Below, in pieces: positions 3,696-60,376 of a DNA stretch of 64,000 bases. The stretch covers positions 4,854 to 68,853 of the forward strand of contig JBFLYD010000009.1 in assembly GCA_040756905.1 (NCBI GenBank), read 5' to 3'. Numbering within the stretch: position 1 is the stretch's first letter; each line of letters opens with the position of its first letter. The position numbers and the translations under genes were made by a program. The notes beneath the pieces were generated by a model. It did not search any database. It was given only the letters and a program-made list of their open reading frames with translations, and was not told the origin of the DNA. Origin of the DNA: Acidobacteriota bacterium (lineage in GTDB: Bacteria; Acidobacteriota; Aminicenantia; JBFLYD01).

Positions 3696-4388
3696 ATGAG
3701 AAAGAAAAAAACTGATGAATTGTTTTCTCTAATTGCTGATAAGTATGACCTTTTAAACCATATCCTGAGTCTGAATGCTGATAGAAGGTGGAGAAAGAAA
3801 CTGGCAGAACTTTTAAGCTTTTCTAAATCTTACAAAATACTGGATGTTTGTGCAGGAACATGTGACTTAGCTATTACCCTTGCTAAAAAAGGTCCAAAAG
3901 CAAAGATTATAGGAATTGATATATCTGAAGATATGTTAAAAATAGGCTTGAGAAAGATAGACAACTTAAACCTTTGTCAAAATATAACCCTTCAGAGAAG
4001 TGATGCTTTTAATCTTCCTTTCAGAGATGAAACCTTTGATGCAGTGACCATTGGCTTTGGCTTGAGGAATTTTCTTGATGTAAAAAAAGGCATAGAAGAA
4101 ATGATACGAGTGCTAAAGAAAGGTGGCGTGCTTTTGATCCTTGAGCTCACACTTCCTGAACAAAGTTTTTTAGCAAAAGTTTATAAATTCTATCTTAAAA
4201 AGATTGTCCCATTAATAGGAGGTTTAATTTCTGGCTCAAAAGCTTCCTATGAATATCTTTCATCATCAATAATAGGTTTTTTCGATCGGGAAGAAATTAT
4301 TGAGTTATTAAAAGAAGAGAAATTAAAAAATATTTATTTAAAAAATTTAAGCTCTGGAATCGCCTGCATCCTTAAAGGCGAGAAATAA
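3696..4388 (+). CDS. ubiE: Demethylmenaquinone/ubiquinone C-methyltransferase (UbiE/MenG family, class I SAM methyltransferase).
   Basis: The N-terminal YDLLNHILSLNADRRWRKK signature is characteristic of UbiE/MenG. The SAM motif ILDVCAGTCDL follows, with a motif II/III region. Confidence 0.75.
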   Translation: MRKKKTDELFSLIADKYDLLNHILSLNADRRWRKKLAELLSFSKSYKILDVCAGTCDLAITLAKKGPKAKIIGIDISEDMLKIGLRKIDNLNLCQNITLQRSDAFNLPFRDETFDAVTIGFGLRNFLDVKKGIEEMIRVLKKGGVLLILELTLPEQSFLAKVYKFYLKKIVPLIGGLISGSKASYEYLSSSIIGFFDREEIIELLKEEKLKNIYLKNLSSGIACILKGEK

Positions 4389-23000: not shown

Positions 23001-23061
23001 CTATGAGCAGAAAGGGTGGCGAGAAACCGAAGGTTCCTGAAAACCGTCACGAATGCGGAGC
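23001..23061 (-). repeat. Right-end fragment of repeat family R1 in inverted orientation.
   Basis: The reverse complement gctccgcattcgtgacggttttc[aggaaccttcggtt]tctcgccaccctttctgctca matches 41745-41797 and 42826-42867. Confidence 0.6.
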
Positions 23062-38905: not shown

Positions 38906-40237
38906 ATGAAAATGGGAAAAAATAAATCAAAATATATTTTATTTATTGTATTTATTTTATTTTCATTTTTTTGGGTAAGAGCAGAAGAAAAATCAGCCGG
39001 TGATAACCTTTTTATTTCTAAGGGGACTATTCTTACGATTACAAAGGGAAAGATTGAAGGTGGTTCTATTTTGATAAAGAATGGAAAAATCTTTGCAGTT
39101 GGTAAAGATTTAAAGCCACCTGAGGGAATTAAAATTATCGATGCAACAGGTAAGTATGTAATGCCAGGCATAATCGATTCCCATTCTCACATGGCAATCG
39201 ACAGAGGAATAAATGAATCAACTTCTCAGGTAACTCCCCAGGTAAACATTCAGGATGTGATAAAACATGATGACATTGCGATATACAGAGCACTGGCAGG
39301 AGGAACCACCTGCGTTCAACCTCTTCATGGAAGTGCAAATGTAATTGGAGGACATAATGCTGTTATAAAACTAAAATGGGGGAAGCCGCCTGAAGAACTT
39401 TTAGTTAAAGATTCAATGCAGGGAATAAAATTTGCCCTCGGAGAAAATCCAAAGAAGTCTAATTTTCCTATGCCCAGAGGCCCTGAATTTCCCAATACAA
39501 GAATGGGGATAGAATTTGTTATAAGAGATTCTTTCAATCATGCTTTAGAGTACATGAAAAAATGGGATGAATACCAGAAGAAAAAGTCATCTTTAAAGAA
39601 GGGAGAAATTCCACCCCTTCCCCCAAAAAGAGATTTAAAATTAGAAGCACTGGCTGATATATTAAAAAGAAACCTTGGGATCGTTTGCCATGGATACAGA
39701 GCTGATGAACTTTTGATGATGCTTAAAACTGCAGATGAGTATGGAGCAAAGGTTGTCTCTTTTGAACATTGTCTTGAAGGATACAAAGTTGCCGATGAGA
39801 TTGCAAAACATGGAACAGTTGCCTCGATATTTGCTGATAACTGGGCTTATAAAATCGAAGCTTTTGATGCAATTCCCTTCAATGCAGCCATTCTTACAGA
39901 AAGAGGAGTTGCTGTAACAGTTAATTCAGATTCAGATGAAAGAGTGAGGAGACTCTATCAGGATGCGGCAAAAACCATGAAGTATGGAGGATTAAGTGAA
40001 GAAGAGGCTCTCAAAACAATTACAATAAATCCTGCAAAGATGCTCGGAATTGACCACAGATGTGGAAGTATTGAGGTTGGGAAAGATGGAGATTTGGCTA
40101 TTTTTAATGGACATCCCTTGAGCGTCTATTCAAAAGTTTTGATGACGATAATTGAGGGAGAGGTTTATTTTGACATAGAAAAAGCTATAACCGCTGAAAA
40201 AGCCCTTGCGATGGCTAAAGAAAAAGAGAAAAAGTGA
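38906..40237 (+). CDS. Secreted amidohydrolase-family protein (paralogue).
   Basis: KGTILTITKGKIEGGSILIKNGKIFAVGKDL...PGIIDSHSHMAIDRG. 443 aa. Confidence 0.75.
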   Translation: MKMGKNKSKYILFIVFILFSFFWVRAEEKSAGDNLFISKGTILTITKGKIEGGSILIKNGKIFAVGKDLKPPEGIKIIDATGKYVMPGIIDSHSHMAIDRGINESTSQVTPQVNIQDVIKHDDIAIYRALAGGTTCVQPLHGSANVIGGHNAVIKLKWGKPPEELLVKDSMQGIKFALGENPKKSNFPMPRGPEFPNTRMGIEFVIRDSFNHALEYMKKWDEYQKKKSSLKKGEIPPLPPKRDLKLEALADILKRNLGIVCHGYRADELLMMLKTADEYGAKVVSFEHCLEGYKVADEIAKHGTVASIFADNWAYKIEAFDAIPFNAAILTERGVAVTVNSDSDERVRRLYQDAAKTMKYGGLSEEEALKTITINPAKMLGIDHRCGSIEVGKDGDLAIFNGHPLSVYSKVLMTIIEGEVYFDIEKAITAEKALAMAKEKEKK

Positions 40238-41559
40238 GGTGGAAGATGAAAGGAAAAATTTCTATTAAATTCATTGGATTATTATGCTTTCTTTTAATAC
40301 TGATAAATTATGTTTATTCGGAAGGCAATAAGGGATATGCGATTGTAAATGCATATATTTTCCCGGTGACATCGGCTCCGATTGAAAATGGTATATTGCT
40401 TATTAAAGACGACAAAATTGAAGCAATAGGAAAGGATTTGGAAGTTCCAGAAGGGTATGAAATAATAAATGCAAAAGGTCTATATGTTTATCCAGGGCTA
40501 ATTGATTCCTCCTCTTTTCTCGGTCTTTCTGAAATAGGTTCTGTTCGAGCAACAGTTGATACCTTTGAAATTGGAAATTTTAAGCCCCATATAAAAGCTG
40601 AGGTTGCGATAAATCCCCATAGTGAGTTAATTCCAGTTACAAGGGTTAATGGAATTGCAACTGTTCTTGTTTCTCCGAGAGGAGGCACGATAGCAGGACA
40701 GAGCGCTCTTGTAAACTTAATAGGCTGGACTCCTGAAGAGATGGTGTTGAAATCTCCAGCTGCCATTCACATTTCATATCCAAGAGTTATTGAGAGAAGG
40801 AGATTCGGAGCTCCAGGAGAAAAGCCCCAGGACGAAGCAGTGGCTCAAAAGCAATTGAAAGAATTGAAAGAATTTCTGGATAGAACAAAAAGATACATTG
40901 AAATCTGGGAAGCATACAATAAGGATAAAAAAGGCTCAATTCCTGAAAAAGACTTGATCCTGGAAGCTATGGCTCCTGCGTTAAAAGGAGAAATTCCTGT
41001 TGTAATTTCTGCAGATAAAGTAAAGGAGATAAAAGGAGCAATAGAACTTGCTGATGGATATAAAATGAAGCTCATTCTGAGTGGGGCATCTGAAGGCTGG
41101 AAGTGTGCAAAATTTATAGGAGAAAAAGGTGTTCCGGTGATACTCAGCTCTCTATTTTCTCTTCCGGGAGAAAAGGAACCTTATGATGCAATATACGCCA
41201 ATGCATCAATTCTTAATAAAGCAGGGGTAAAGGTAGTATTTTCCACTGAAAGCGCAAGCGATGTAAGAAATCTTCCCTATCAGGCTGGAACTGCCTCTGC
41301 CTATGGGCTTCCAAAAGAAGAAGCCCTGAAGGGCATAACGATATATCCTGCTGAAATTTTCGGGGTTCAGGATAAAATTGGGAGCTTGGAGAAAGGGAAA
41401 ATAGCCAACATAATTTTGACAGATGGAGACCCTCTGGAGATGAGAACACAAACAAAACATCTTTTTATAAAAGGGCAGAAACTTCCTCTTACAAGCAAGC
41501 ATATCGAACTGTATGAGAAATTCAGAAAAAGACCTTCCATAAAGTTTTTTAGCCGATAA
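40234..41559 (+). CDS. Secreted amidohydrolase-family protein (paralogue).
   Basis: AYIFPVTSAPIENGILLIKDDKIEAIGKDL...PGLIDSSS. 441 aa. Overlaps the previous gene by 4 nt. Confidence 0.7.
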   Translation: MRWKMKGKISIKFIGLLCFLLILINYVYSEGNKGYAIVNAYIFPVTSAPIENGILLIKDDKIEAIGKDLEVPEGYEIINAKGLYVYPGLIDSSSFLGLSEIGSVRATVDTFEIGNFKPHIKAEVAINPHSELIPVTRVNGIATVLVSPRGGTIAGQSALVNLIGWTPEEMVLKSPAAIHISYPRVIERRRFGAPGEKPQDEAVAQKQLKELKEFLDRTKRYIEIWEAYNKDKKGSIPEKDLILEAMAPALKGEIPVVISADKVKEIKGAIELADGYKMKLILSGASEGWKCAKFIGEKGVPVILSSLFSLPGEKEPYDAIYANASILNKAGVKVVFSTESASDVRNLPYQAGTASAYGLPKEEALKGITIYPAEIFGVQDKIGSLEKGKIANIILTDGDPLEMRTQTKHLFIKGQKLPLTSKHIELYEKFRKRPSIKFFSR

Positions 41560-41797
41560 AAAATTTGAGCAGCAAGAGTGACTTCGAAAACACGCTGTAT
41601 TTTCCCCAGTCCCGCACTAACTTATTATTACCTAAGTTAAGGAATTCATAATATCTCTACTCCCATCACTTAATTTTTTTGGAATAAATACAGTTAGTGC
41701 GGGAGCATTCATGCTTCGCTCTTCTCCTGAGTAAACTCAGGAGAAACCATGCCCGCTCCACATTCGTGACGGTTTTCTCGCCACCCTTGCTGCTCAG
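41560..41797 (+). mobile_element. Repeat family R1, full copy (about 238 bp), MITE-like, with roughly 25-bp imperfect terminal inverted repeats (GCAGCAAGRGTGACTTCGAAAAC ... GTTTTCTCGCCACCCTTGCTGC) and internal palindromes.
   Basis: Left end aaaaatttgagcagcaagagtgacttcgaaaacac and right end cgtgacggttttctcgccacccttgctgctca. Internal cccgcactaact/agttagtgcggg and ctcctgagtaaactcaggag palindromes. Copies and fragments at 44698-45013, 42826-42867, 23001-23061 and 13072-13107. Confidence 0.6.
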
Positions 41798-41899: not shown

Positions 41900-42817
41900 A
41901 TGGGAGAATGGCTGAGAGGAGATTTATTAGCTGAAGAAATTAAGGCAGAAATTCAGAGAGGATTAGAATCCTATAAGGAAAAAATCAAAAGGCCTCCTTA
42001 TTTAGTTGGAATTTTAATAGGTGAGAACCCCTCATCAAAAATTTATCTTAACATAAAAAAAAGGGAATGCGAGAAAATTGGAATCAAGTCAGAGATTGTA
42101 AAATTTTCTGAAGATGAAACAAGGGAAAATATATTAAATAAAATCAATGAATTGAATGATAATAGAGCGATAGATGGAATTCTGGTTCAGCTTCCAATCC
42201 CTTCTCATCTTGATACCCTTGAAATAATAAGTGCTTTAAGCCCTGATAAAGATGTGGATGGTTTTCACCCTGATAATGTTAGTAGAATATTCTATGCAAA
42301 GCCAGGGTTCAGACCTTGCACTCCTTTTGGAATTTTAGAGCTATTGAAAAGAAACAACATAAAGATAGAAGGAAAGAGGGCAGTTATAATAGGAAGGAGC
42401 TTTATCGTTGGAAAACCTTTAGGGTTGATGTTACTAAATGAGAACGCCACTTTGACTTTCTGCCATTCAAAGACAGAGAACTTAAAAGATGTGACAAGTT
42501 CTGCTGATATATTAATTGTGGCAATCGGGAAACCATGCTTTGTCAGAAAAGATTTTGTTAAACAGGGTGCTGTTGTTGTAGATGTCGGAATTAATCAGAT
42601 AACAGATTTGGCTGAGTTTAAAAGAATTTGTGGAGATAATGAGAAAAAAGAAGTTCAGATTAAAGAAAAAGGCAGCACTCTTGTTGGAGATGTTCACCCT
42701 GAGGTGATAGAAAAAGCTTCATTCCTTACCCCTGTTCCAGGAGGAGTTGGACCTTTAACAGTTGCAATGCTTTTAAAAAATACCTGGGAATCCTTTAGAA
42801 AAAGAGAAAATTTATAA
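41900..42817 (+). CDS. folD: Bifunctional methylenetetrahydrofolate dehydrogenase/methenyl-THF cyclohydrolase FolD.
   Basis: N-terminal YLVGILIGENPSSKIY, GILVQLPIP and PVPGGVGPLTVAMLL. Confidence 0.85.
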   Translation: MGEWLRGDLLAEEIKAEIQRGLESYKEKIKRPPYLVGILIGENPSSKIYLNIKKRECEKIGIKSEIVKFSEDETRENILNKINELNDNRAIDGILVQLPIPSHLDTLEIISALSPDKDVDGFHPDNVSRIFYAKPGFRPCTPFGILELLKRNNIKIEGKRAVIIGRSFIVGKPLGLMLLNENATLTFCHSKTENLKDVTSSADILIVAIGKPCFVRKDFVKQGAVVVDVGINQITDLAEFKRICGDNEKKEVQIKEKGSTLVGDVHPEVIEKASFLTPVPGGVGPLTVAMLLKNTWESFRKRENL

Positions 42818-42825
42818 ATTCTGAA

Positions 42826-42867
42826 GTGGCGGTTCTCAGGAACCTTCGGTTTCTCCGCCACCCTTCC
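42826..42867 (+). repeat. Repeat family R1 right-end fragment (hairpin gtggcgg-N22-ccgccac) immediately after the folD stop.
   Basis: gtggcggttctcaggaaccttcggtttctccgccacccttcc matches 23001-23061 (reverse complement) and the R1 right ends. Confidence 0.55.
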
Positions 42868-42878
42868 TTCTCACCTAA

Positions 42879-43028
42879 TACAAACGCAATAAATAATTTG
42901 TAGGGCAACCCTTCAGAGCCTGCCCCAAACCTTGCCCTGAACTTGTTTCATGGGTTGATTCGGGGGTTGCTTAATGCAAGGTTAAAGCCTTGCCCTACAT
43001 GTCAATTTATTTAATTCGTTTGTATTAA
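42879..43028 (+). mobile_element. Repeat family R2, longest copy (about 150 bp), MITE-like, with roughly 30-bp terminal inverted repeats (TACAAACGCAATAAATAATTTGTAGGGCAA ... TTGCCCTACATGTCAATTTATTTAATTCGTTTGTA).
   Basis: Shorter copies at 59447-59533 and 58652-58724 share the tgtagggcaa...ttgccctacatg palindromic core. Confidence 0.6.
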
Positions 43029-43054: not shown

Positions 43055-43912
43055 TTAGATTCTCGGATTGGCGTAGCAATAAATACATGCATTCGGGCAT
43101 GGTTGAGTATAGCTACCTATGTCTATTGAAACAGTACAACCGCATTCTTTTCTTTGAGATGGGTCTTTTTTCGTAATAGCCTGTTTTTTTTCAGGGTGGA
43201 TTTTGCTAAGAAAATTTCCATCGATGCAGGAAGATTTTTTTATAAAAGAGATTTTTTCCAAAAATGGTTGGGAACAGGAGAAAATATTAATATTGTATTT
43301 ATATACTGTTTCCTCAATTTCATAGATGTCCTTTAACTTTTCTTCTTCAGGAGGATCTACATAATCTAAATTTAATTTTTTAGCTCTTTTGATACACTTT
43401 GGATAATATTGAACAAAACTCAGTCTTATATCTTTTATTCCAAATTTTGAAATTTCAGATATAATTTTTTCAAAATAAGTAAGATTGCTTTTTACTCCTC
43501 CATCTTCTCTCCAGTAAATTATCGGGTCGAACCTTATAGATATTCTTTCAGGAAGCTGAGAAATTTCTACCAATCTATCAATCTGGGCTAAAGCTTCACA
43601 CAAAGGAATAACTCCAGGTTCAATTCTGGTGCCTCCAAGACCAGTAATTGTAAAAAGAAAATACAGTTGGGCATATTCTTTTAATAAATCTAATAAGTTA
43701 TGCCTATTTTCGATAAGATTTTTAAAATTTTTGCTCCAGAGAACTATTGTATGGGTATTCGAGGGATTTAGATCTACAACATAAGAGTATTTGTAGGGTC
43801 CTATTACAATCGCTTTTCTATTTTTTAATGAATTTACTAACCAATCAGGGAAATGAGCAATTAAATCAGTTCTTCTTGAAGCGCTTATAATTCTATGTTC
43901 CTTGACTTTCAT
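43055..43912 (-). CDS. DUF1848-like protein.
   Basis: 285 aa. N-terminal IISASRRTDLIAHFPDWL and a C-terminal Cys cluster (CPNACIYC) resemble the DUF1848 family. Low certainty. Confidence 0.5.
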   Translation of the reverse strand: MKVKEHRIISASRRTDLIAHFPDWLVNSLKNRKAIVIGPYKYSYVVDLNPSNTHTIVLWSKNFKNLIENRHNLLDLLKEYAQLYFLFTITGLGGTRIEPGVIPLCEALAQIDRLVEISQLPERISIRFDPIIYWREDGGVKSNLTYFEKIISEISKFGIKDIRLSFVQYYPKCIKRAKKLNLDYVDPPEEEKLKDIYEIEETVYKYNINIFSCSQPFLEKISFIKKSSCIDGNFLSKIHPEKKQAITKKDPSQRKECGCTVSIDIGSYTQPCPNACIYCYANPRI

Positions 43913-43956: not shown

Positions 43957-44691
43957 ATGTCAAAGCTTAATGCAAAAAATTTAGTTAAGAATTTTTCTGG
44001 CAGAAGGGTTGTCAACAATGTAAGCTTAGAGATAAATTCAGGTGAGGTTGTAGGGTTTTTAGGAAGAAACGGAGCAGGTAAAACAACTGTATTTCAAATT
44101 ATTGTCGGGCTGATAAAGCCCGATTTTGGGAAGATTTATGTGGATGAAGAAGATTATACTTATCTTCCATCGAGTTTGAGAGCAAGAAAGGGATTGGTTT
44201 ATCTTCCCCAGGAACATTCTGTTTTTTTAAAAGCAACAGTGGAAGAAAATCTTGAAATGATATTTCAAACAGTTAAACTTTCTTACATATCAAAGATTGA
44301 GAAGAAAAAAAATCTGATAAGAGATTTTAATTTAGGAGATATTTTACAACAGCCTGCTTTTACTCTTTCTGGTGGGGAAAAGAGAAGACTTGAGACAGCA
44401 AGAGCATTAATATTGAACCCTGTTTTTCTCTTTCTTGATGAGCCATTTTCAGGTATAGATCCCCTTACAGTTACAGAGATCCAGAAAATTATTCTTTTTC
44501 TAAAGGAGAAAGGAATAGGGGTGATTATTTCTGACCATAACGTGAGAGATACATTTGAAGTTACTGATAGAGCTTATATTATTCATGAGGGAGAGGTTGT
44601 AGTTTCAGGAATGCCTGAAGAACTATCCAAGAATAAAGAAGCAAAGAAAATATTTCTCGGCGAAAATTTCAAACTCGGCCAGGAAATATAA
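43957..44691 (+). CDS. lptB: LPS export ABC transporter ATP-binding protein LptB-like.
   Basis: Walker A GRNGAGKTT, LSGGEKRRLETARAL signature and Walker B LFLDEPFSGIDP. 244 aa. The RARKGLVYLPQE region is typical of LptB. Confidence 0.7.
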   Translation: MSKLNAKNLVKNFSGRRVVNNVSLEINSGEVVGFLGRNGAGKTTVFQIIVGLIKPDFGKIYVDEEDYTYLPSSLRARKGLVYLPQEHSVFLKATVEENLEMIFQTVKLSYISKIEKKKNLIRDFNLGDILQQPAFTLSGGEKRRLETARALILNPVFLFLDEPFSGIDPLTVTEIQKIILFLKEKGIGVIISDHNVRDTFEVTDRAYIIHEGEVVVSGMPEELSKNKEAKKIFLGENFKLGQEI

Positions 44692-44697
44692 ATCGTT

Positions 44698-45013
44698 TAA
44701 AAATTTGGGCAGCAAGGGTGACTTCGAAAACACTTATTAAGAAGGCAACCATCCCCTTCGCTCAGGATCTCCTCGCATCAAAATCTAAGCTCGTTCGCTC
44801 AAATAATCTCCTATCCCTTAGAGTCTTATCTTCTCTCATCTTTTAAATCCTCTCTCGCTCCCGTTCATTTCATCATTTCTCTTCCATTGATCTAAAATAT
44901 AGGAGATTATTCTCACTCACTTCGCAGATTTTTAGATGCTCGTCGATATATCGCTCAGAAGATGGTTGCCTTCTTTTTTTAATTAAGTTTTCTTCGCCAC
45001 CCTTGCTGCCCAT
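44698..45013 (+). mobile_element. Repeat family R1, second full copy (about 316 bp), inserted immediately after the lptB stop codon.
   Basis: Left end aaaaatttgggcagcaagggtgacttcgaaaacac and right end ttttcttcgccacccttgctgccca. Internal 13-bp perfect inverted repeat gaaggcaaccatc (44748) / gatggttgccttc (44961). Confidence 0.6.
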
Positions 45014-55572: not shown

Positions 55573-57465
55573 ATGAATAATCAACTCGTTGAAGTTGCCC
55601 TTCCTTTACCAATAATAAATAATTTCATATATAAAGTGCCTGAAGATTTAAGGGATAAAGTTTCAACAGGAAAAAGGGTGAGGGTTTCTTTTAAGAACAG
55701 GCATTATACAGGATTCATAGTGAATTCCTCACCAGAACAGACCATCTCAGGAGAAATAAAAGAAGTGGAAGAAATCATAGATGATGAGGTATTGATAACA
55801 GAGGATGTTTTTCTTATGTGTAAAAAAGTTTCAGAGTATTTTTTTTGCAGCTTAGGAGAATTGTTATCTTCGATACCTTTGTCTAATAGAAAGGCAGAGT
55901 TTAAAGACCTTTCCAGATCAGAAAATCTCGAACTTAAAAGAATTCCAGATATTTTAATAGAATTTCTTAAGGAAAAAAAACCTTTATTAATAAAGGGGTC
56001 TCGGGATGAAAGAATAAATATGTATATAGCCCTTGCAATTAATGAAGTAGAAAAAGGGAAAAATGTCTTGATCCTATTTCCTGAGGTTTCTGATCTTGAA
56101 TACTTTGAAGAAATAATTAGACCTCAAAGACTCAAGACTTCATTTATTTCCGGAAAATTAAGCAAGAGGAAAAAAGAAATTGAATGGGTTGAGATAAAAA
56201 ATGGAATGAGAACCATTATTTCAGGAACATTTCCTGTTCTTTTTTATTCTATCCCAAATTTATCTCTGATAATAATCGATGGAGAAGAGGGTCTTTCTTA
56301 CATAAAACAGAACAGTCCAAAATATAATATAAAAGAAGTTGCTTTTATTAAAGCTCAGCTTATGAACTCCTCAATTATCCTCGGCTCTGATTCACCTTCT
56401 GTGGAATCCATTTTTAAAGTAAAAAGAAAAGATTTTTCTTTCTACGAGCTTGACAATGACAGAAAGAAATCTTTAAGGGTCAAATTTTTGAGGTCTAAAA
56501 AAGTAATATCTGATGAATTAAAAAACGAAATAGATAAAAATCTTAAGCAAAAAAATAAGATGATTTTTTTTGTTAACAGGAAGGGCTTGGGAAGTTTTTT
56601 GGTCTGCAATAATTGTGGTTTCATAAAGAATTGTAAAAATTGTAATATTCCCCTTCGTTTTCATCAGGAGAATTTATTAATATGTCATTTTTGTGGATAT
56701 TCAGAAAATGTGGAGAGATTATGTCCTGGATGTAAATCAAAATTGAGAGCAGTTGGATGGTTTGGAACTGAGAGGGTCTACCATGAATTGAAATCAATTT
56801 ATCCGGAAAAGAAAATAGAAATTTTAGACCTCGAAAGATGTAGAAGTAAGAAAGCTCAGAACAAGATATGGCAAGAATTTCTTTACAATAATACAGAGAT
56901 AATGATTGGAACTCAATTAATTTTAAGTTATAAGCATTTTGATAGGATTAGAATTCCTCTATTAGTGCTCCTGAATCCTGAATCAAGTCTATCTTTTCCA
57001 GATTATAGGTTTTCAGAAAATACTTTTCATATAATTGATAAATTACTTCTTTCAGTTGAAGATGAAGGAAAGGTAATAGTCCAGAGCAGTGGACATCTTC
57101 ATTACAGTATAATTTCTCCTCTTTCATTCAACAATGATTTATTTTATAAAGAAGAGTTATTATATAGAGAAATTATGCAGTATCCTCCCTTTTTCTCAAT
57201 TGTCAAATTATTAATTCCAGGAAGGAAAAGGAGAAGTATTGGCACAAAAGCCAGAAAAATATTGGAAACAATAAAAATACATGAAAATGGGTTTAAAGTT
57301 TATGGTCCAAATTTCGCTCCGATTTCCAAATTAAAAGGATTATGGAGGGTTCAGCTGATTTTAAAAGGAGATATAACTGAGATAAGGAAATTTCTCAGAG
57401 AGAACATCGATGTATTCTTAAAGGAAAAAATCAACATCGAGATAAATCCTCTCTCCACTCTCTGA
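55573..57465 (+). CDS. priA: Primosomal protein N' (PriA) homologue with degenerate ATPase/helicase motifs.
   Basis: Collinear with PriA. N-terminal 3' DNA-binding-like region and an intact Cys-rich zinc motif (CNNCGFIKNCKNCNIP...CHFCGY...CPGCKS). Walker A GVTGSGKT is replaced by IKGSRDER, DEEH by DGEE, SAT by SDS, and QxxGRAGR by QSSGHLH. Confidence 0.7.
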   Translation: MNNQLVEVALPLPIINNFIYKVPEDLRDKVSTGKRVRVSFKNRHYTGFIVNSSPEQTISGEIKEVEEIIDDEVLITEDVFLMCKKVSEYFFCSLGELLSSIPLSNRKAEFKDLSRSENLELKRIPDILIEFLKEKKPLLIKGSRDERINMYIALAINEVEKGKNVLILFPEVSDLEYFEEIIRPQRLKTSFISGKLSKRKKEIEWVEIKNGMRTIISGTFPVLFYSIPNLSLIIIDGEEGLSYIKQNSPKYNIKEVAFIKAQLMNSSIILGSDSPSVESIFKVKRKDFSFYELDNDRKKSLRVKFLRSKKVISDELKNEIDKNLKQKNKMIFFVNRKGLGSFLVCNNCGFIKNCKNCNIPLRFHQENLLICHFCGYSENVERLCPGCKSKLRAVGWFGTERVYHELKSIYPEKKIEILDLERCRSKKAQNKIWQEFLYNNTEIMIGTQLILSYKHFDRIRIPLLVLLNPESSLSFPDYRFSENTFHIIDKLLLSVEDEGKVIVQSSGHLHYSIISPLSFNNDLFYKEELLYREIMQYPPFFSIVKLLIPGRKRRSIGTKARKILETIKIHENGFKVYGPNFAPISKLKGLWRVQLILKGDITEIRKFLRENIDVFLKEKINIEINPLSTL

Positions 57466-57494: not shown

Positions 57495-58565
57495 TTAGGT
57501 TTTAGATAATTTTATTTGTATTTCCTCTGATATTTTTTTCCATACCTCTAAATCTACGGATAAGAAAGCTTCAATAATTTTAGGGTCAAATTGAGTTCCG
57601 GAGTTTTTCTTAATTTCCTCTCTGGCATATTCAAAAGAGTAAGCCTTTCTGTAGGGCCTATCCGAAGTTAATGCATCTAAAGCATCGGCTACAGCAAAAA
57701 TTCTCGCCCCTAAGGGAATTTCATCGTTTTTCTTTCCATAAGGATACCCTGTTCCATCATAATTTTCATGATGGTAAAGAACTATGATCGAAGCGGGTTG
57801 AAGGAATTTAACTTTCCTCATCATGTTATAACCAATCTCTGAGTGTGTTTTCATTGTTTCCCATTCTTCCGGGGATAACTTCTCTGGCTTTCTGAGGATA
57901 TAATCTGGAATCGCAATCTTACCAATGTCGTGCAATAAAGCTGCTCTTCGAAGAGTGATAAGTTCATCTTTATCTTCAATACCATAAGATTCAGCTATTT
58001 TTATTGCATATTCAGTTACTCTATTGGAATGACCATGGGTCTCAGTATCTCTGAAATCAAGAGCAAGTATCAAGGAATTTAAAGTTTCATTGTATGTCTC
58101 GTTTAGTTCCTCTAACGCTTTTTTTAATTCATTTGTTCTCTCCTCAACCATCTCCTCCAGATGTTTCTGGTATCTTAGATTCTCCAGAACAAGCCTTCTT
58201 TTTTCAAGACCTCTTTTTACATTTATTACAACTTCTGAGAGTTTAAATGGTTTTATCACGTAATCATAAGCACCAAGAGTCATTGCATCTATAGCAATGT
58301 TGATATCTTTAAGAGCTGACATCATAATAATTCCCATGTGAGGGTCAATCTCCTTTAGCTCTTTGAGCAGTTCAAGGCCGCTTTTGCCTGGCATTCTTAT
58401 ATCAGTAATTAGTAAAGAAAAATTATTTTCTCCCTTAAAAATTTTTAGAGCCTCTTCAGCATTAGATGCTGTAACACATTCATAACCTTGGCCTTCAAGA
58501 AATTCTAAAAGTAACTCTCTTATTGTTTCTTCATCATCAACTATCAAGATTTTTTCTTTCTCCAT
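57495..58565 (-). CDS. Response-regulator receiver plus HD-GYP domain protein (RpfG-like c-di-GMP phosphodiesterase).
   Basis: Receiver ILIVDDEETIRELL...D(54-like)IRMPGKSGLEL. HD-GYP HDIGKIAIPD...HHENYDGTGYP. Confidence 0.85.
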   Translation of the reverse strand: MEKEKILIVDDEETIRELLLEFLEGQGYECVTASNAEEALKIFKGENNFSLLITDIRMPGKSGLELLKELKEIDPHMGIIMMSALKDINIAIDAMTLGAYDYVIKPFKLSEVVINVKRGLEKRRLVLENLRYQKHLEEMVEERTNELKKALEELNETYNETLNSLILALDFRDTETHGHSNRVTEYAIKIAESYGIEDKDELITLRRAALLHDIGKIAIPDYILRKPEKLSPEEWETMKTHSEIGYNMMRKVKFLQPASIIVLYHHENYDGTGYPYGKKNDEIPLGARIFAVADALDALTSDRPYRKAYSFEYAREEIKKNSGTQFDPKIIEAFLSVDLEVWKKISEEIQIKLSKT

Positions 58566-58651
58566 AGGACAGATATTATATTTATTTTATTTTTATTTGT
58601 AAATTAATATGATTATCATTAGTGTTTATTATACTTATACCAATAATTAAT

Positions 58652-58724
58652 ATGTAGGGCAAGCCTTTAGGCTTGCTTATTTTGCAGGGCTAAAGCCCTG
58701 CCCTACATGAGTTTATTTATTGCC
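58652..58724 (+). repeat. Repeat family R2, short copy (about 73 bp).
   Basis: atgtagggcaagcctttaggcttgc...gcagggctaaagccctgccctacatga, a nested palindrome. Confidence 0.55.
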
Positions 58725-58756
58725 ATTAGTATAATAAAAAAGATAAACGTTATAAT

Positions 58757-59440
58757 TCAATTGGTTAATATATTCAAAATTTCAAAAGGGGTGTTAAAAA
58801 GATAATCAGGGTTTGCTTCCATTAATTTTTTCTTGCTCATAGTTCCCCATAAGGCTCCTCCTGTCACGACTCCTGCTAATCTTCCTGATGTAATGTCTAA
58901 AAAAGAATCTCCAACATGAAGCACATTTGAGGGAGAAATTTGAAGTTCTTTACATAATTTCAAAACTCCCTCAGGGCTTGGTTTTGGATTTTTTAAATCT
59001 TCACTTGAAACAAGAGAATCTATGTGTTCAGCTAATCCCTTCTCTTTGATTAAAAATAAGGAAAGCTCCCTTCCCCTTCCTGTAAATATTCCAATTTTCT
59101 TGTTTCTCCTCTTTATTTCAATGATTGTATCTGGGAATCCATCATATAAGTTTATTTCATCCAATCTATCCATAAACATTTTGAGATATTCATTGAAGCA
59201 TTTTTCTAAATCATCTTTTCTTACAAAATCTGAAAATATTTTCTTCTCAGAAGGTCCGAGGAGAAGATATATTTCATCGGGAGTGAAATCCCGCTTTCCC
59301 CATTTCTTTAAAACTTTTATAAAGGCATCTATCGTCACAGGGTAAGAATCAATTATGGTTCCATCGAGGTCAAATATAATTCCTTCAAATTTCATAGAGA
59401 AATATTTATTAAATATATAGTGCTCCTCATATAAAAACAA
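58757..59440 (-). CDS. HAD-superfamily hydrolase (subfamily IA, phosphatase-like).
   Basis: Motif I IIFDLDGTIIDS, motif II-like FTGRGRE, and a VGDS...D C-terminal motif. Confidence 0.75.
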   Translation of the reverse strand: MFLYEEHYIFNKYFSMKFEGIIFDLDGTIIDSYPVTIDAFIKVLKKWGKRDFTPDEIYLLLGPSEKKIFSDFVRKDDLEKCFNEYLKMFMDRLDEINLYDGFPDTIIEIKRRNKKIGIFTGRGRELSLFLIKEKGLAEHIDSLVSSEDLKNPKPSPEGVLKLCKELQISPSNVLHVGDSFLDITSGRLAGVVTGGALWGTMSKKKLMEANPDYLFNTPFEILNILTN

Positions 59441-59446
59441 TAAATA

Positions 59447-59533
59447 ATTTGTAGGGCAACCCTTTAGGGTTGCTTAATGCAAGGCTAAAGCCATGCCCTA
59501 CATGTCAACTTATTTAATTCGTTTGTATTAAAT
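59447..59533 (+). repeat. Repeat family R2, short copy (about 87 bp).
   Basis: acaataaataatttgtagggcaaccctttagggttgcttaatgcaaggctaaagccatgccctacatgtcaacttatttaattcgtttgtatta matches R2 at 42879-43028 with the central segment deleted. Confidence 0.6.
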
Positions 59534-59536
59534 AAT

Positions 59537-60376
59537 TTAATATCCAAATCCGAACAATATAACTCCTATGAGGAGTCCTATAATTATATTAAAAAATTTA
59601 ATATAAAAGAAATCTTTTATTGAATACGATAACATCGGAAGCATGCCATGACCATCCTGCGCAAAAGCACTTACAAAGAGAACTGAGAAAGGTATCATTC
59701 CCTTTGAGAACATCATAACAAATATTAAATGGGGTCCAGATTCAGGTAGTATTGCAAGAGCTGCAGCAAATAGAAATACAAGTAATAGATTATTTTTTAC
59801 AAATGTCTCAAGATTCCAGAATTTCATAAGAAACTCAATCGACAGAAGAGTTAAGAATGTCCAGATAAATAATTTCCACAGATGCTTTTTTAACAGATGG
59901 TCCCAAACGTGGACTTTTAGATAATGAGAAAAAGAAAAATCCTCAGCATGATATTCTTGAAGAACACATTCAGTGCAGGGCTTTATCTTAAATAGGGGGT
60001 AGATATAATCTATGAGAATTCCAAAGATAATCCCAGAAATAAATAAAAGTAGAAATAAAAAAAGAGCTTTTTTGGGAAATAATGAAATCATTACAAATGC
60101 TTCATCTCCTGATGAGGCAATCATTCCTCCAGTAATCGCTCCAAAACTTATAAGTCTGTGTATATAAAGGGAAACATTCGTAAATCCACCAAAACATCCA
60201 GGTATAGTTCCCAGAAAAGAGGCTGTAACATATTGCATGTATTTTTTATTTTTTAAAAATTCATCAAGCTTTCCTTTCGTAAACACTGAAACAACATCTA
60301 TGGTAATCATCGTCAATAAAACCAGGAATGTGATCTCCAGTGTTTCTTTAATTACTTCAGGGAAAAGTTCACTCAT
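59537..60376 (-). CDS. Polytopic membrane protein, function unknown (possible small-molecule transporter).
   Basis: 279 aa with eight predicted TM helices; the roughly 40-aa central loop carries a CxxC pair (CTEC). Confidence 0.5.
   Translation of the reverse strand: MSELFPEVIKETLEITFLVLLTMITIDVVSVFTKGKLDEFLKNKKYMQYVTASFLGTIPGCFGGFTNVSLYIHRLISFGAITGGMIASSGDEAFVMISLFPKKALFLFLLLFISGIIFGILIDYIYPLFKIKPCTECVLQEYHAEDFSFSHYLKVHVWDHLLKKHLWKLFIWTFLTLLSIEFLMKFWNLETFVKNNLLLVFLFAAALAILPESGPHLIFVMMFSKGMIPFSVLFVSAFAQDGHGMLPMLSYSIKDFFYIKFFNIIIGLLIGVILFGFGY

Follow-up and report, generated by a model that had tools for sequence, protein, structure and literature searches.

Three palindromic repeats, all of them intergenic, are found in a 64,000-nucleotide stretch of Acidobacteriota DNA (contig JBFLYD010000009.1 of assembly GCA_040756905.1, positions 4,854 to 68,853 of the forward strand; this whole stretch is called the window below). 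An earlier note, made from the sequence, grouped them as three copies of a family named R2, and the locus raises the question of what R2 is: a mobile element, and if so of which kind, or a sequence that serves its host. [quoted passage not shown] A genomic parasite of this kind is ordinary; the family itself is new.

The three window copies and the canonical R2 unit

Read on the + strand, R2 has five parts. A short arm of 23 nt, which starts with TAATACAAACGC, is followed by T-GTAG-G and a 7-bp stem with a 4-nt loop (GCAACCC-TTTA-GGGTTGC); then come a spacer of 4–6 nt, a second hairpin (GCAAGGC-TAAA-GCCTTGC) with C-CTAC-A behind it, and finally a long arm of 28 nt that terminates in GCGTTTGTATTA. 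The arms are A/T-rich inverted termini (TAATACAAACGC...GCGTTTGTATTA) that enclose two inverted GTAG-headed hairpins, a core in which the REP-like palindromes of the earlier note are confirmed: a GTAG head beside a short G+C-rich hairpin, with the two units inverted. The TIRs are 12–13 bp long, and pairs 1–12 of the outer helix are standard in 63–73 of 74 aligned copies. The hairpins are inverted copies of one type of unit that differ in three inner stem bases (CCC vs GGC), so that each pairs perfectly with itself and imperfectly with its partner. In place of the perfect nested palindrome that had been proposed, the copies form a Y: the A/T arms pair as its outer stem, GTAG pairs with CTAC in a further stem, and two 7-bp hairpins with differing inner bases stand apart from each other. 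Both strands of the consensus fold in this way (−31 kcal/mol as DNA, −45 to −47 as RNA; z-scores −7.6 to −9.4), and the predicted folds of the window copies resemble it. When the Y structure is laid on the 74-copy alignment, which has a mean column identity of 87%, 90.5% of the cells are standard pairs, compared with 32–45% when the partners are slid. R2 is non-coding, with stops in all six reading frames and each frame closed within a few codons of the ends. In Rfam 15 it reaches the gathering threshold of no family, the best sub-threshold matches being to unrelated miRNA families at E values of 0.7 or more.

A covariance model of R2, trained on 73 copies from other genomes (loci outside the window carry L numbers below) together with window copy C, gives exactly three matches in the window, and all else has an E value of at least 0.5. 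Copy C (59427–59530) scores 90.8 bits (E 2e-16), copy B (58629–58734) 70 bits (E 4e-12) and copy A 63.5 bits (E 9e-11) over 42885–43018, its termini extending it to 42876–43027; for each of them the + strand gives the better score. The three have the motif TGTAGGGCAA...TTGCCCTACATG in common. The 10-mer TGTAGGGCAA, with up to one mismatch allowed, occurs 7 times in the window against 2.3 expected, a count reached in none of 100 shuffles, and six of these seven occurrences are the paired heads of copies A, B and C. By direct-repeat detection and three-way alignment, the likeness among the copies runs on into the A/T-rich flanks, and R2-type termini are present in the window only at R2 copies. 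The earlier note was thus right that three related copies exist, at the places it gave and beyond chance, and wrong about their boundaries. The window has three copies in its 64 kb.

Copy C (59427–59530, + strand) is 104 bp long and has 85.6% identity to the consensus. Its core at 59450–59502 reads TGTAGG-GCAACCC-TTTA-GGGTTGC TTAAT GCAAGGC-TAAA-GCCATGC-CCTACA; the left terminus has decayed, with TCATATAAAAAC in place of TAATACAAACGC, and the right terminus is intact. Copy B (58629–58734, + strand; 106 bp, 76.9% identity to the consensus) has diverged arms (TTATACTTATACCAATAATTAATA ... AGTTTATTTATTGCCATTAGTATAA) that are similar to those of a copy, L024, in a metagenome-assembled genome (MAG) of Elusimicrobiota. 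Its core, at 58653–58707, is TGTAGG-GCAAGCC-TTTA-GGCTTGC ... GCAGGGC-TAAA-GCCCTGC-CCTACA, and relative to copies A and C both hairpins show compensatory changes (GCAAGCC/GGCTTGC; GCAGGGC/GCCCTGC). Copies B and C had been taken to be only 73 and 87 bp long; with their diverged A/T-rich arms included, both are full-length.

Copy A (42876–43027, + strand) is the longest, at 152 bp, and has 88.5% identity to the metagenome consensus outside an insertion. Its short arm, TAATACAAACGCAATAAATAATT (42876–42898), has an intact 12-bp terminus, and the flanks of the copy read C|TA...TA|A. REP-type unit 1 (42899–42970) consists of the T-GTAG-G head and a stem in which GCAACCC (42905–42911) pairs with GGGTTGC (42964–42970) across a loop interrupted by a secondary insertion of 48 nt (42916–42963). 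Within the insert, GCCCC...GGGGG enclose CCCTGAACTTGTTTCATGGG to give a small nested palindrome of its own, and the middle part of the insert, CCTGAACTTGTTTCA, is found again in other loci. The inverted unit 2 follows at 42976–42999 (GCAAGGT-TAAA-GCCTTGC, then C-CTAC-A), and the long arm, TGTCAATTTATTTAATTCGTTTGTATTA, occupies 43000–43027. All of these parts are on the + strand. Copy A, which the earlier note treated as the progenitor, is thus the canonical unit plus 48 nt. The window copies are old and partly decayed: C lacks one terminus, the arms of B have diverged and A is interrupted by a nested insertion.

The canonical length is clear from the copies elsewhere. Among 103 full copies listed, 82 are exactly 104 bp long and 95 measure 103–105 bp, so the idea that the short copies arose from the long one by internal deletion has to be turned round. 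Longer copies have additional small palindromes, which lie in the loop of a hairpin in one class (L143, L051 and L086, and copy A with them) and between the hairpins in another (L123, L060), and in five loci (L075, L087, L108, L118, L130) hairpin 2 has been swapped for an unrelated CCCGC-TATTA-GCGGG. The unit that multiplies is the whole 104-bp R2.

Target site and distribution beyond the window

The dinucleotide TA is present at both ends of essentially all R2 copies. Immediately outside it, the 88 distinct sites among the copies listed from other genomes and metagenomes fall into a small number of flank classes: T..G at 32 sites (implied target TTAG), C..A at 29 (CTAA), C..G at 19 (CTAG) and T..A at 3 (TTAA), with 5 sites in other classes. 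In the next positions outward, the left side favours A and the right side T. All classes are evenly represented among the subfamilies of the element and are therefore a property of the target, not of the element. Once a single TA is put back, the targets come out as CTAA/TTAG by preference and CTAG next, with TTAA avoided. Since the two mirror-image classes are equally frequent (32 vs 29), the orientation of R2 is random relative to its target.

Three tandem pairs of R2 have one TA in common (GTAT-TA-ATAC), and none of them has TATA at the junction. At L097, the flanks joined with a single TA give a gapless alignment to an R2-free relative in L109 (GGAGTTCG-TA-GTTCGG), and at L154 an R2 copy interrupts another small element, of which an intact paralogue in L124 has two bases at that point. 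In 7–8 of 39 co-directional contexts, the upstream gene ends on the element's first TAA as its stop codon; if a stop is regained when R2 enters the TA of a stop codon, this is the outcome to be expected. Longer duplications of 3 or 4 bp (TAA/TTA, YTAR or TTAA) were considered and rejected, as the flanks are reverse complements and not direct repeats; TTAA occurs on both sides at only 2–3 sites. The pattern suggests that R2 inserts at TA and duplicates it. Insertion at TA with a 2-bp duplication is established for IS630/Tc1-mariner transposases (ISY100; Feng & Colloms 2007, PMC2170065).

The distribution of the family was followed by two scans. In genomes of the Genome Taxonomy Database (GTDB) representatives, with one genome per species, a pattern of two heads with a 25–55-nt gap matches 43 loci, where a rough calculation that assumes uniform base composition predicts about 8 by chance. 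Nearly all of the 43 share the two-hairpin layout, which the pattern does not demand, and perfect stems of at least 6 bp follow both GTAG heads in 27 of the 44 core sequences listed (two loci being listed in both orientations). About a dozen stem sequences occur, with complementarity kept, among them GCAAGGC, GCAACCC, GCAAACC, GCAAGGGC, GCAACGG, GCAGGGC, GCAAGAT, GCAATTT and GCAAGCG. Seven of these core-selected loci have the full element with R2 arms, at 80–117 bits with the covariance model; by MAG label they belong to Deltaproteobacteria (three loci in two MAGs), Syntrophaceae (two loci in one MAG) and Nitrospirae (two MAGs, of 42% and 64% G+C over the fetched stretch), and their copies have 82–99% identity. 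Besides the MAG of the window, those with full copies are JAGXTA01, CAYMTD01, JACRON01, JACRHK01 and MGPS01. A Planctomycetia MAG and an Elusimicrobiota MAG give weaker whole-model matches of 62 and 72 bits. In the other loci the match is limited to the core or is lacking, so that only 7–9 of the core-selected loci bear R2 arms and most doublets are arm-free.

The second scan, of metagenomes with a pattern of one arm plus one head, matched at least 120 contigs, and all of the matches listed are R2 copies apart from about five chance matches. The window has 33% G+C, and the DNA around other copies 38–64%. A search of sequenced plasmids and phages gave no R2 match; among viral contigs there is a single match, with a Clostridia-type core. 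Literature searches with R2 sequence strings returned unrelated primers only, and the family seems to be undescribed so far. The presence of near-identical R2 under several phylum labels is its one unusual trait, and one that rests on MAG labels and on partly fixed search patterns.

The arms and the doublet probably behave as modules independent of each other, with the TIRs as chassis and the REP units as cargo, because most doublets in genomes are arm-free and because termini of R2 type enclose other hairpins in L124 (488–611; GTCATTCC...GGAATGAC and ATGCTGAAC-TAG-TTTCAGCAT). Termini of this type also surround a different internal hairpin, GTCATTGCGAGG..., in L085 (4308–4435). In anammox-type MAGs labelled Scalindua or Brocadiaceae (L006, L010, L011), the same GTAG hairpin doublet occurs without R2 arms, and on one side a conserved TAACCCGAAC(G/A)AGTCGGAA(A/G)AGAAA comes before it, an arrangement that looks like another composite around the same core.

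R2 copies themselves serve as targets for other small elements. In L164 a different MITE of about 140 bp (approximately 1362–1501; termini GATGGTCTCGTAAAAAGTCG...CGACTTTTTACGAATTTGTC) has entered an R2 copy at hairpin 1, where it is accompanied by an 8-bp duplication, CAACCCTT, and the near-identical contig L122 has R2 intact. This was the single case of presence/absence polymorphism found among the loci, and it concerns the inserted MITE.

Neighbouring genes and other repeats

Copy A lies between the 3' ends of two convergent genes, folD (41900–42817, +) and a DUF1848 gene (43055–43912, −). Copies B and C lie on either side of a HAD hydrolase gene on the minus strand (58757–59395, with its stop at 58757 and start at 59395). 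Beyond copy B a response-regulator/HD gene, also on the minus strand and co-directional with the HAD gene, starts at 58565. A sigma-70-type promoter-like site at 58575–58603 (minus strand; TTTACA, a 17-nt spacer and TATAAT, 11 of 12 consensus matches) is placed between copy B and this start. The site is on the gene side of copy B, so copy B is upstream of the likely promoter, which is uninterrupted. Copy C lies between the start of the HAD gene and the stop, at 59537, of a co-directional ArsP_2-family gene. As B and C bracket the HAD gene in the same orientation, the arrangement has the look of a composite transposon. With 77% and 86% identity to the consensus, B and C diverge markedly from each other, so that independent insertions into two spacers are a more likely explanation than a mobile gene cassette.

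Among the other copies, 39 are in tandem, 11 in convergent and 7 of 57 in divergent gene pairs, and between co-directional genes R2 is a median of 37 nt past the upstream stop codon. Their scarcity between divergent genes could be explained equally well by selection against copies that land in promoters and by some positive role. Relative to the flanking genes, R2 has the same orientation in 16 cases and the opposite in 23, and the genes beside the copies are unrelated housekeeping genes. The terminator function that had been suggested for R2 finds no support: its hairpins are followed by TTTAA or ATGTAAAA and none by a T-tract, and the terminator scan, a consensus one, flags other sites in the window and no R2 copy. 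The promoter scan likewise placed no promoter-like site in association with R2 copies. In their spacers the window copies appear to be passive, and any effects on neighbouring genes, such as the stabilisation of mRNA 3' ends, are possible and would be secondary.

Several further observations were made in the same DNA. A fragment of a repeat R1 (42818–42876, GTGGCGGTTCTCAGGAACCTTCGGTTTCTCCGCCACCCTTCCTTCTCA) follows the folD stop codon and directly abuts copy A. A second R1 copy is near 23012–23046 (23010–23060, minus strand), with about 94% identity over 36 nt and 83% over some 80 aligned columns, and the R1 hairpin is GTGGCGG...CCGCCAC. As judged from these sequences, R1 is a separate repeat family, beside which copy A was apparently inserted. 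A 40-nt box, AAAAATTTGRGCAGCAAGRGTGACTTCGAAAACAC, occurs at 41554–41593 and 44694–44733 with 90% identity, and the likeness ends at the edges of the box. Each of the two boxes lies at the 3' end of a gene, and the genes are unrelated: one box spans the stop codon of an amidohydrolase (40234–41559), and the other begins just past that of an ABC ATPase (43957–44691). A PriA homologue of 630 aa (55573–57465, +) matches the PriA 3'-DNA-binding, zinc-ribbon and C-terminal domains and gives no DEAD or Helicase_C match. All of its distant homologues have both helicase domains, and apart from a 100% match to MEW6455313.1, a protein of an Acidobacteriota MAG, its nearest relative among 5.8 billion proteins has 31% identity; either its helicase core is very divergent or its lineage is very isolated. 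Exact look-ups of the folD, response-regulator, ABC ATPase and PriA products gave no entry.

For the window itself the identification of R2 matters little, and the readings of folD, the HAD hydrolase gene and their neighbours are unchanged. Its interest is wider. R2 is abundant, under several phylum labels, in metagenomes of groundwater, sediment and bioreactor type. It can serve as a handy marker for the horizontal movement of DNA between uncultured anaerobes, and it is a likely cause of assembly breaks and of spurious small open reading frames in MAGs. It is also a natural test case for the relation of REP-type hairpins to TIR-type MITEs, because both signatures share one 104-bp unit.

Candidate mobilisers, rival explanations and known systems

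REP-associated tyrosine transposases (RAYTs) and other Y1 enzymes were sought with motif regular expressions and then by phmmer, for which the queries were 13 RAYT/TIRYT sequences from the literature together with RayT of E. coli and the TnpA proteins of IS200 and IS608. Among the window proteins, phmmer detects no gene for a Y1 transposase, RAYT, TIRYT or IS200-type protein. The 164 loci fetched (about 1 Mb, with some 130 copies) contain only two IS200-type genes, both of which were rejected as mobilisers of R2, since they belong to independent insertion sequences with unrelated hairpins of their own. One is part of a complete insertion sequence in L156 (3665–4198; tnpA 3701–4171; end hairpins CCCAGCTCTGCTGGGG and CCCCGCAGCTCTGCTGCGGGG) that is inserted precisely into an R2 copy, splitting its long arm behind ...ATTATTTAT; L046 and L154 show that subfamily of R2 without the interruption. 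The other, in L066, is about 700 bp from R2 with a gene in between. Lone R2 termini, considered as the ends of an autonomous element, turned out to be truncated copies or chance matches. All-against-all clustering of the neighbouring proteins brought out housekeeping families only, among them ABC transporters, histidine kinases, epimerases, acyl-CoA dehydrogenases and ATP synthase.

R2's ends, together with its target, point to a mobiliser of the DDE/IS630 type. A transposase encoded outside the window would recognise the 12–13-bp termini and move R2 in trans, and the element would enter a TA dinucleotide and duplicate it, in the manner of IS630/Tc1-mariner elements. The REP doublet, which also occurs arm-free in many other bacteria, would be a core module, with the arms as chassis and the hairpins as cargo.

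Several points weigh against this account. Neither the window nor the roughly 1 Mb of loci yielded a DDE transposase or an autonomous element whose termini match. Both empty-site comparisons use related or paralogous sequences of 82–89% identity and not one orthologous locus, so that, formally, the TA could belong to the element itself and not be a duplication. The phylum labels derive from MAG binning, and the scans preset either the GTAG heads or an arm plus one head, so the conservation of these parts is partly imposed. GTAG-headed hairpins, moreover, are exactly what RAYT (Y1) enzymes recognise, and the core or the whole unit may be RAYT-moved. The last point leads to a possible if unlikely explanation, in which R2 is a REPIN: a REP doublet moved as single-stranded DNA by a RAYT (HUH/Y1) that recognises the GTAG heads and hairpins, the A/T arms being only conserved flanks or a preferred palindromic landing site. 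Each R2 unit indeed has the defining anatomy of a REP, and the inverted, heads-outward arrangement is the commonest, 'HH', type of dimer, among which heterodimers are common (PMC3733652). The same study describes GTAG dimers inside long A/T-rich palindromes in Anabaena variabilis, as well as RAYT genes that have composite inverted repeats on either side, in which a degenerate GTAG unit is joined to an unrelated stem-loop (PMC3733652). Most core-selected genomes, too, have the core without R2 arms, and two truncated copies end exactly at the boundary between arm and GTAG. This explanation expects a RAYT gene flanked by GTAGGGCAA hairpins, whereas neither the window nor the 164 loci yield a RAYT/TIRYT homologue, and none of the 128 matches listed for the arm-plus-head pattern, which ought to have picked up such a gene as well, has a RAYT flanked by arm-plus-REP ends. 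Symmetric TA flanks, a palindromic target preference, a TA shared by tandem copies, a fixed unit of 104 bp and 12-bp TIRs are unreported for Y1/RAYT systems. Nor does it sit well with near-identical copies in genomes of 33–64% G+C and different phylum labels, when REPINs are described as vertically inherited. Somewhat more doubtful still is a chimera, in which a doublet of REP/REPIN type, a kind usually linked to one single-copy RAYT and passed on vertically, was captured as cargo by a TA-targeting TIR chassis. If true, the chassis would carry REP hairpins horizontally from one phylum of co-habiting anaerobes to another, and the element would be open to two unrelated classes of transposase, DDE and HUH/Y1.

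The remaining explanations are all less probable. It is improbable that the copies are kept by a host function, as bidirectional terminators, mRNA 3'-end stabilisers or sites for a nucleoid- or gyrase-type protein. The window copies and nearly all others are intergenic, with the 3' side of genes favoured and divergent pairs rarer, the fold is very stable on either strand, and effects of this kind are documented for REPs and MITEs (PMC3733652; PMC10969869). The absence of T-tracts and of terminator calls at the copies speaks against the first of these roles, and the decay of the window copies against purifying selection here. A host function would, in addition, leave identical TA-bounded units at unrelated sites in different phyla unexplained, and as a secondary effect it is compatible with a TA-duplicating MITE. 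A structured small RNA or a cis-regulatory RNA motif could account for the stable predicted fold and for some compensatory changes, but it is very improbable: no Rfam family matches even at E ≤ 5, the orientation to neighbouring genes is random (16 vs 23), no promoter-like site accompanies the copies, the neighbours are functionally unrelated, and a near-palindrome has the same fold on both strands, as expected from symmetry at the DNA level. There is a negligible probability that the three copies resemble one another by chance or arose when a hairpin was duplicated locally. There are only three in the window, two of them 800 bp apart, but their E-values range from 9e-11 to 2e-16 with a model built on other genomes plus copy C only, and more than 100 further copies with unrelated flanks are found elsewhere. 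The earlier note's view of a dispersed repeat of MITE or REP kind, as opposed to a local duplication, is borne out by the same element at the 88 distinct sites.

Three known systems come closest to R2. GTAG-tagged REPs form head-head dimers, often heterodimers (Di Nocera, De Gregorio & Rocco 2013, PMC3733652). They share with the R2 core a GTAG beside a short-loop, G+C-rich stem of 6–9 bp, with two units inverted and GTAG outward, and in their heterodimers, as in R2, the partner stems differ, so no single perfect long palindrome results. Their doublets, like R2, are intergenic and mostly lie between co-directional or convergent genes. GTAG head-head heterodimers are equivalent to REPINs in the sense of Bertels & Rainey. 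R2's layout is shared by the GTAG-15 dimers of A. variabilis, which lie inside long A/T-rich palindromes that start with TATAGGA and end with TCCTATA (PMC3733652). Unlike REPs and REPINs, R2 has 12–13-bp TIRs, TA at both ends and a target preference, features not reported for those sequences; no RAYT was found nearby, and the spacer between its hairpins is only 4–6 nt. REPINs are also described as vertically inherited within lineages (10.1101/2024.10.14.618302), whereas R2 is not lineage-specific, its near-identical copies occurring under several phylum labels.

The ends of IS200/IS605 elements, and the miniature elements derived from these, palindrome-associated transposable elements (PATEs), resemble R2 in having sub-terminal hairpins, which are recognised as single-stranded DNA; it was to this group that the earlier note had pointed. 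IS200/IS605 elements lack TIRs, leave their target unduplicated and enter in one orientation on the 3' side of a fixed tetra- or pentanucleotide. R2 differs from them and from PATEs in its inverted termini, its symmetric TA flanks and its random orientation relative to the asymmetric target classes (29 vs 32).

In general build, R2 is like the TA-duplicating bacterial MITEs associated with the IS630/Tc1-mariner superfamily, such as RUP of Streptococcus pneumoniae, and like the Correia elements of Neisseria; RUP and Correia elements both duplicate a TA target. These too are non-coding, intergenic elements of about 100–150 bp with TIRs, a strong hairpin fold and flanking TA, and they occur as nested insertions and tandem copies. 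We know of no sequence similarity between their termini and those of R2. The differences lie in the centre, which in R2 is a REP doublet and not the remnants of an insertion sequence, and in the host range, which in R2 apparently spans phyla rather than a single genus.

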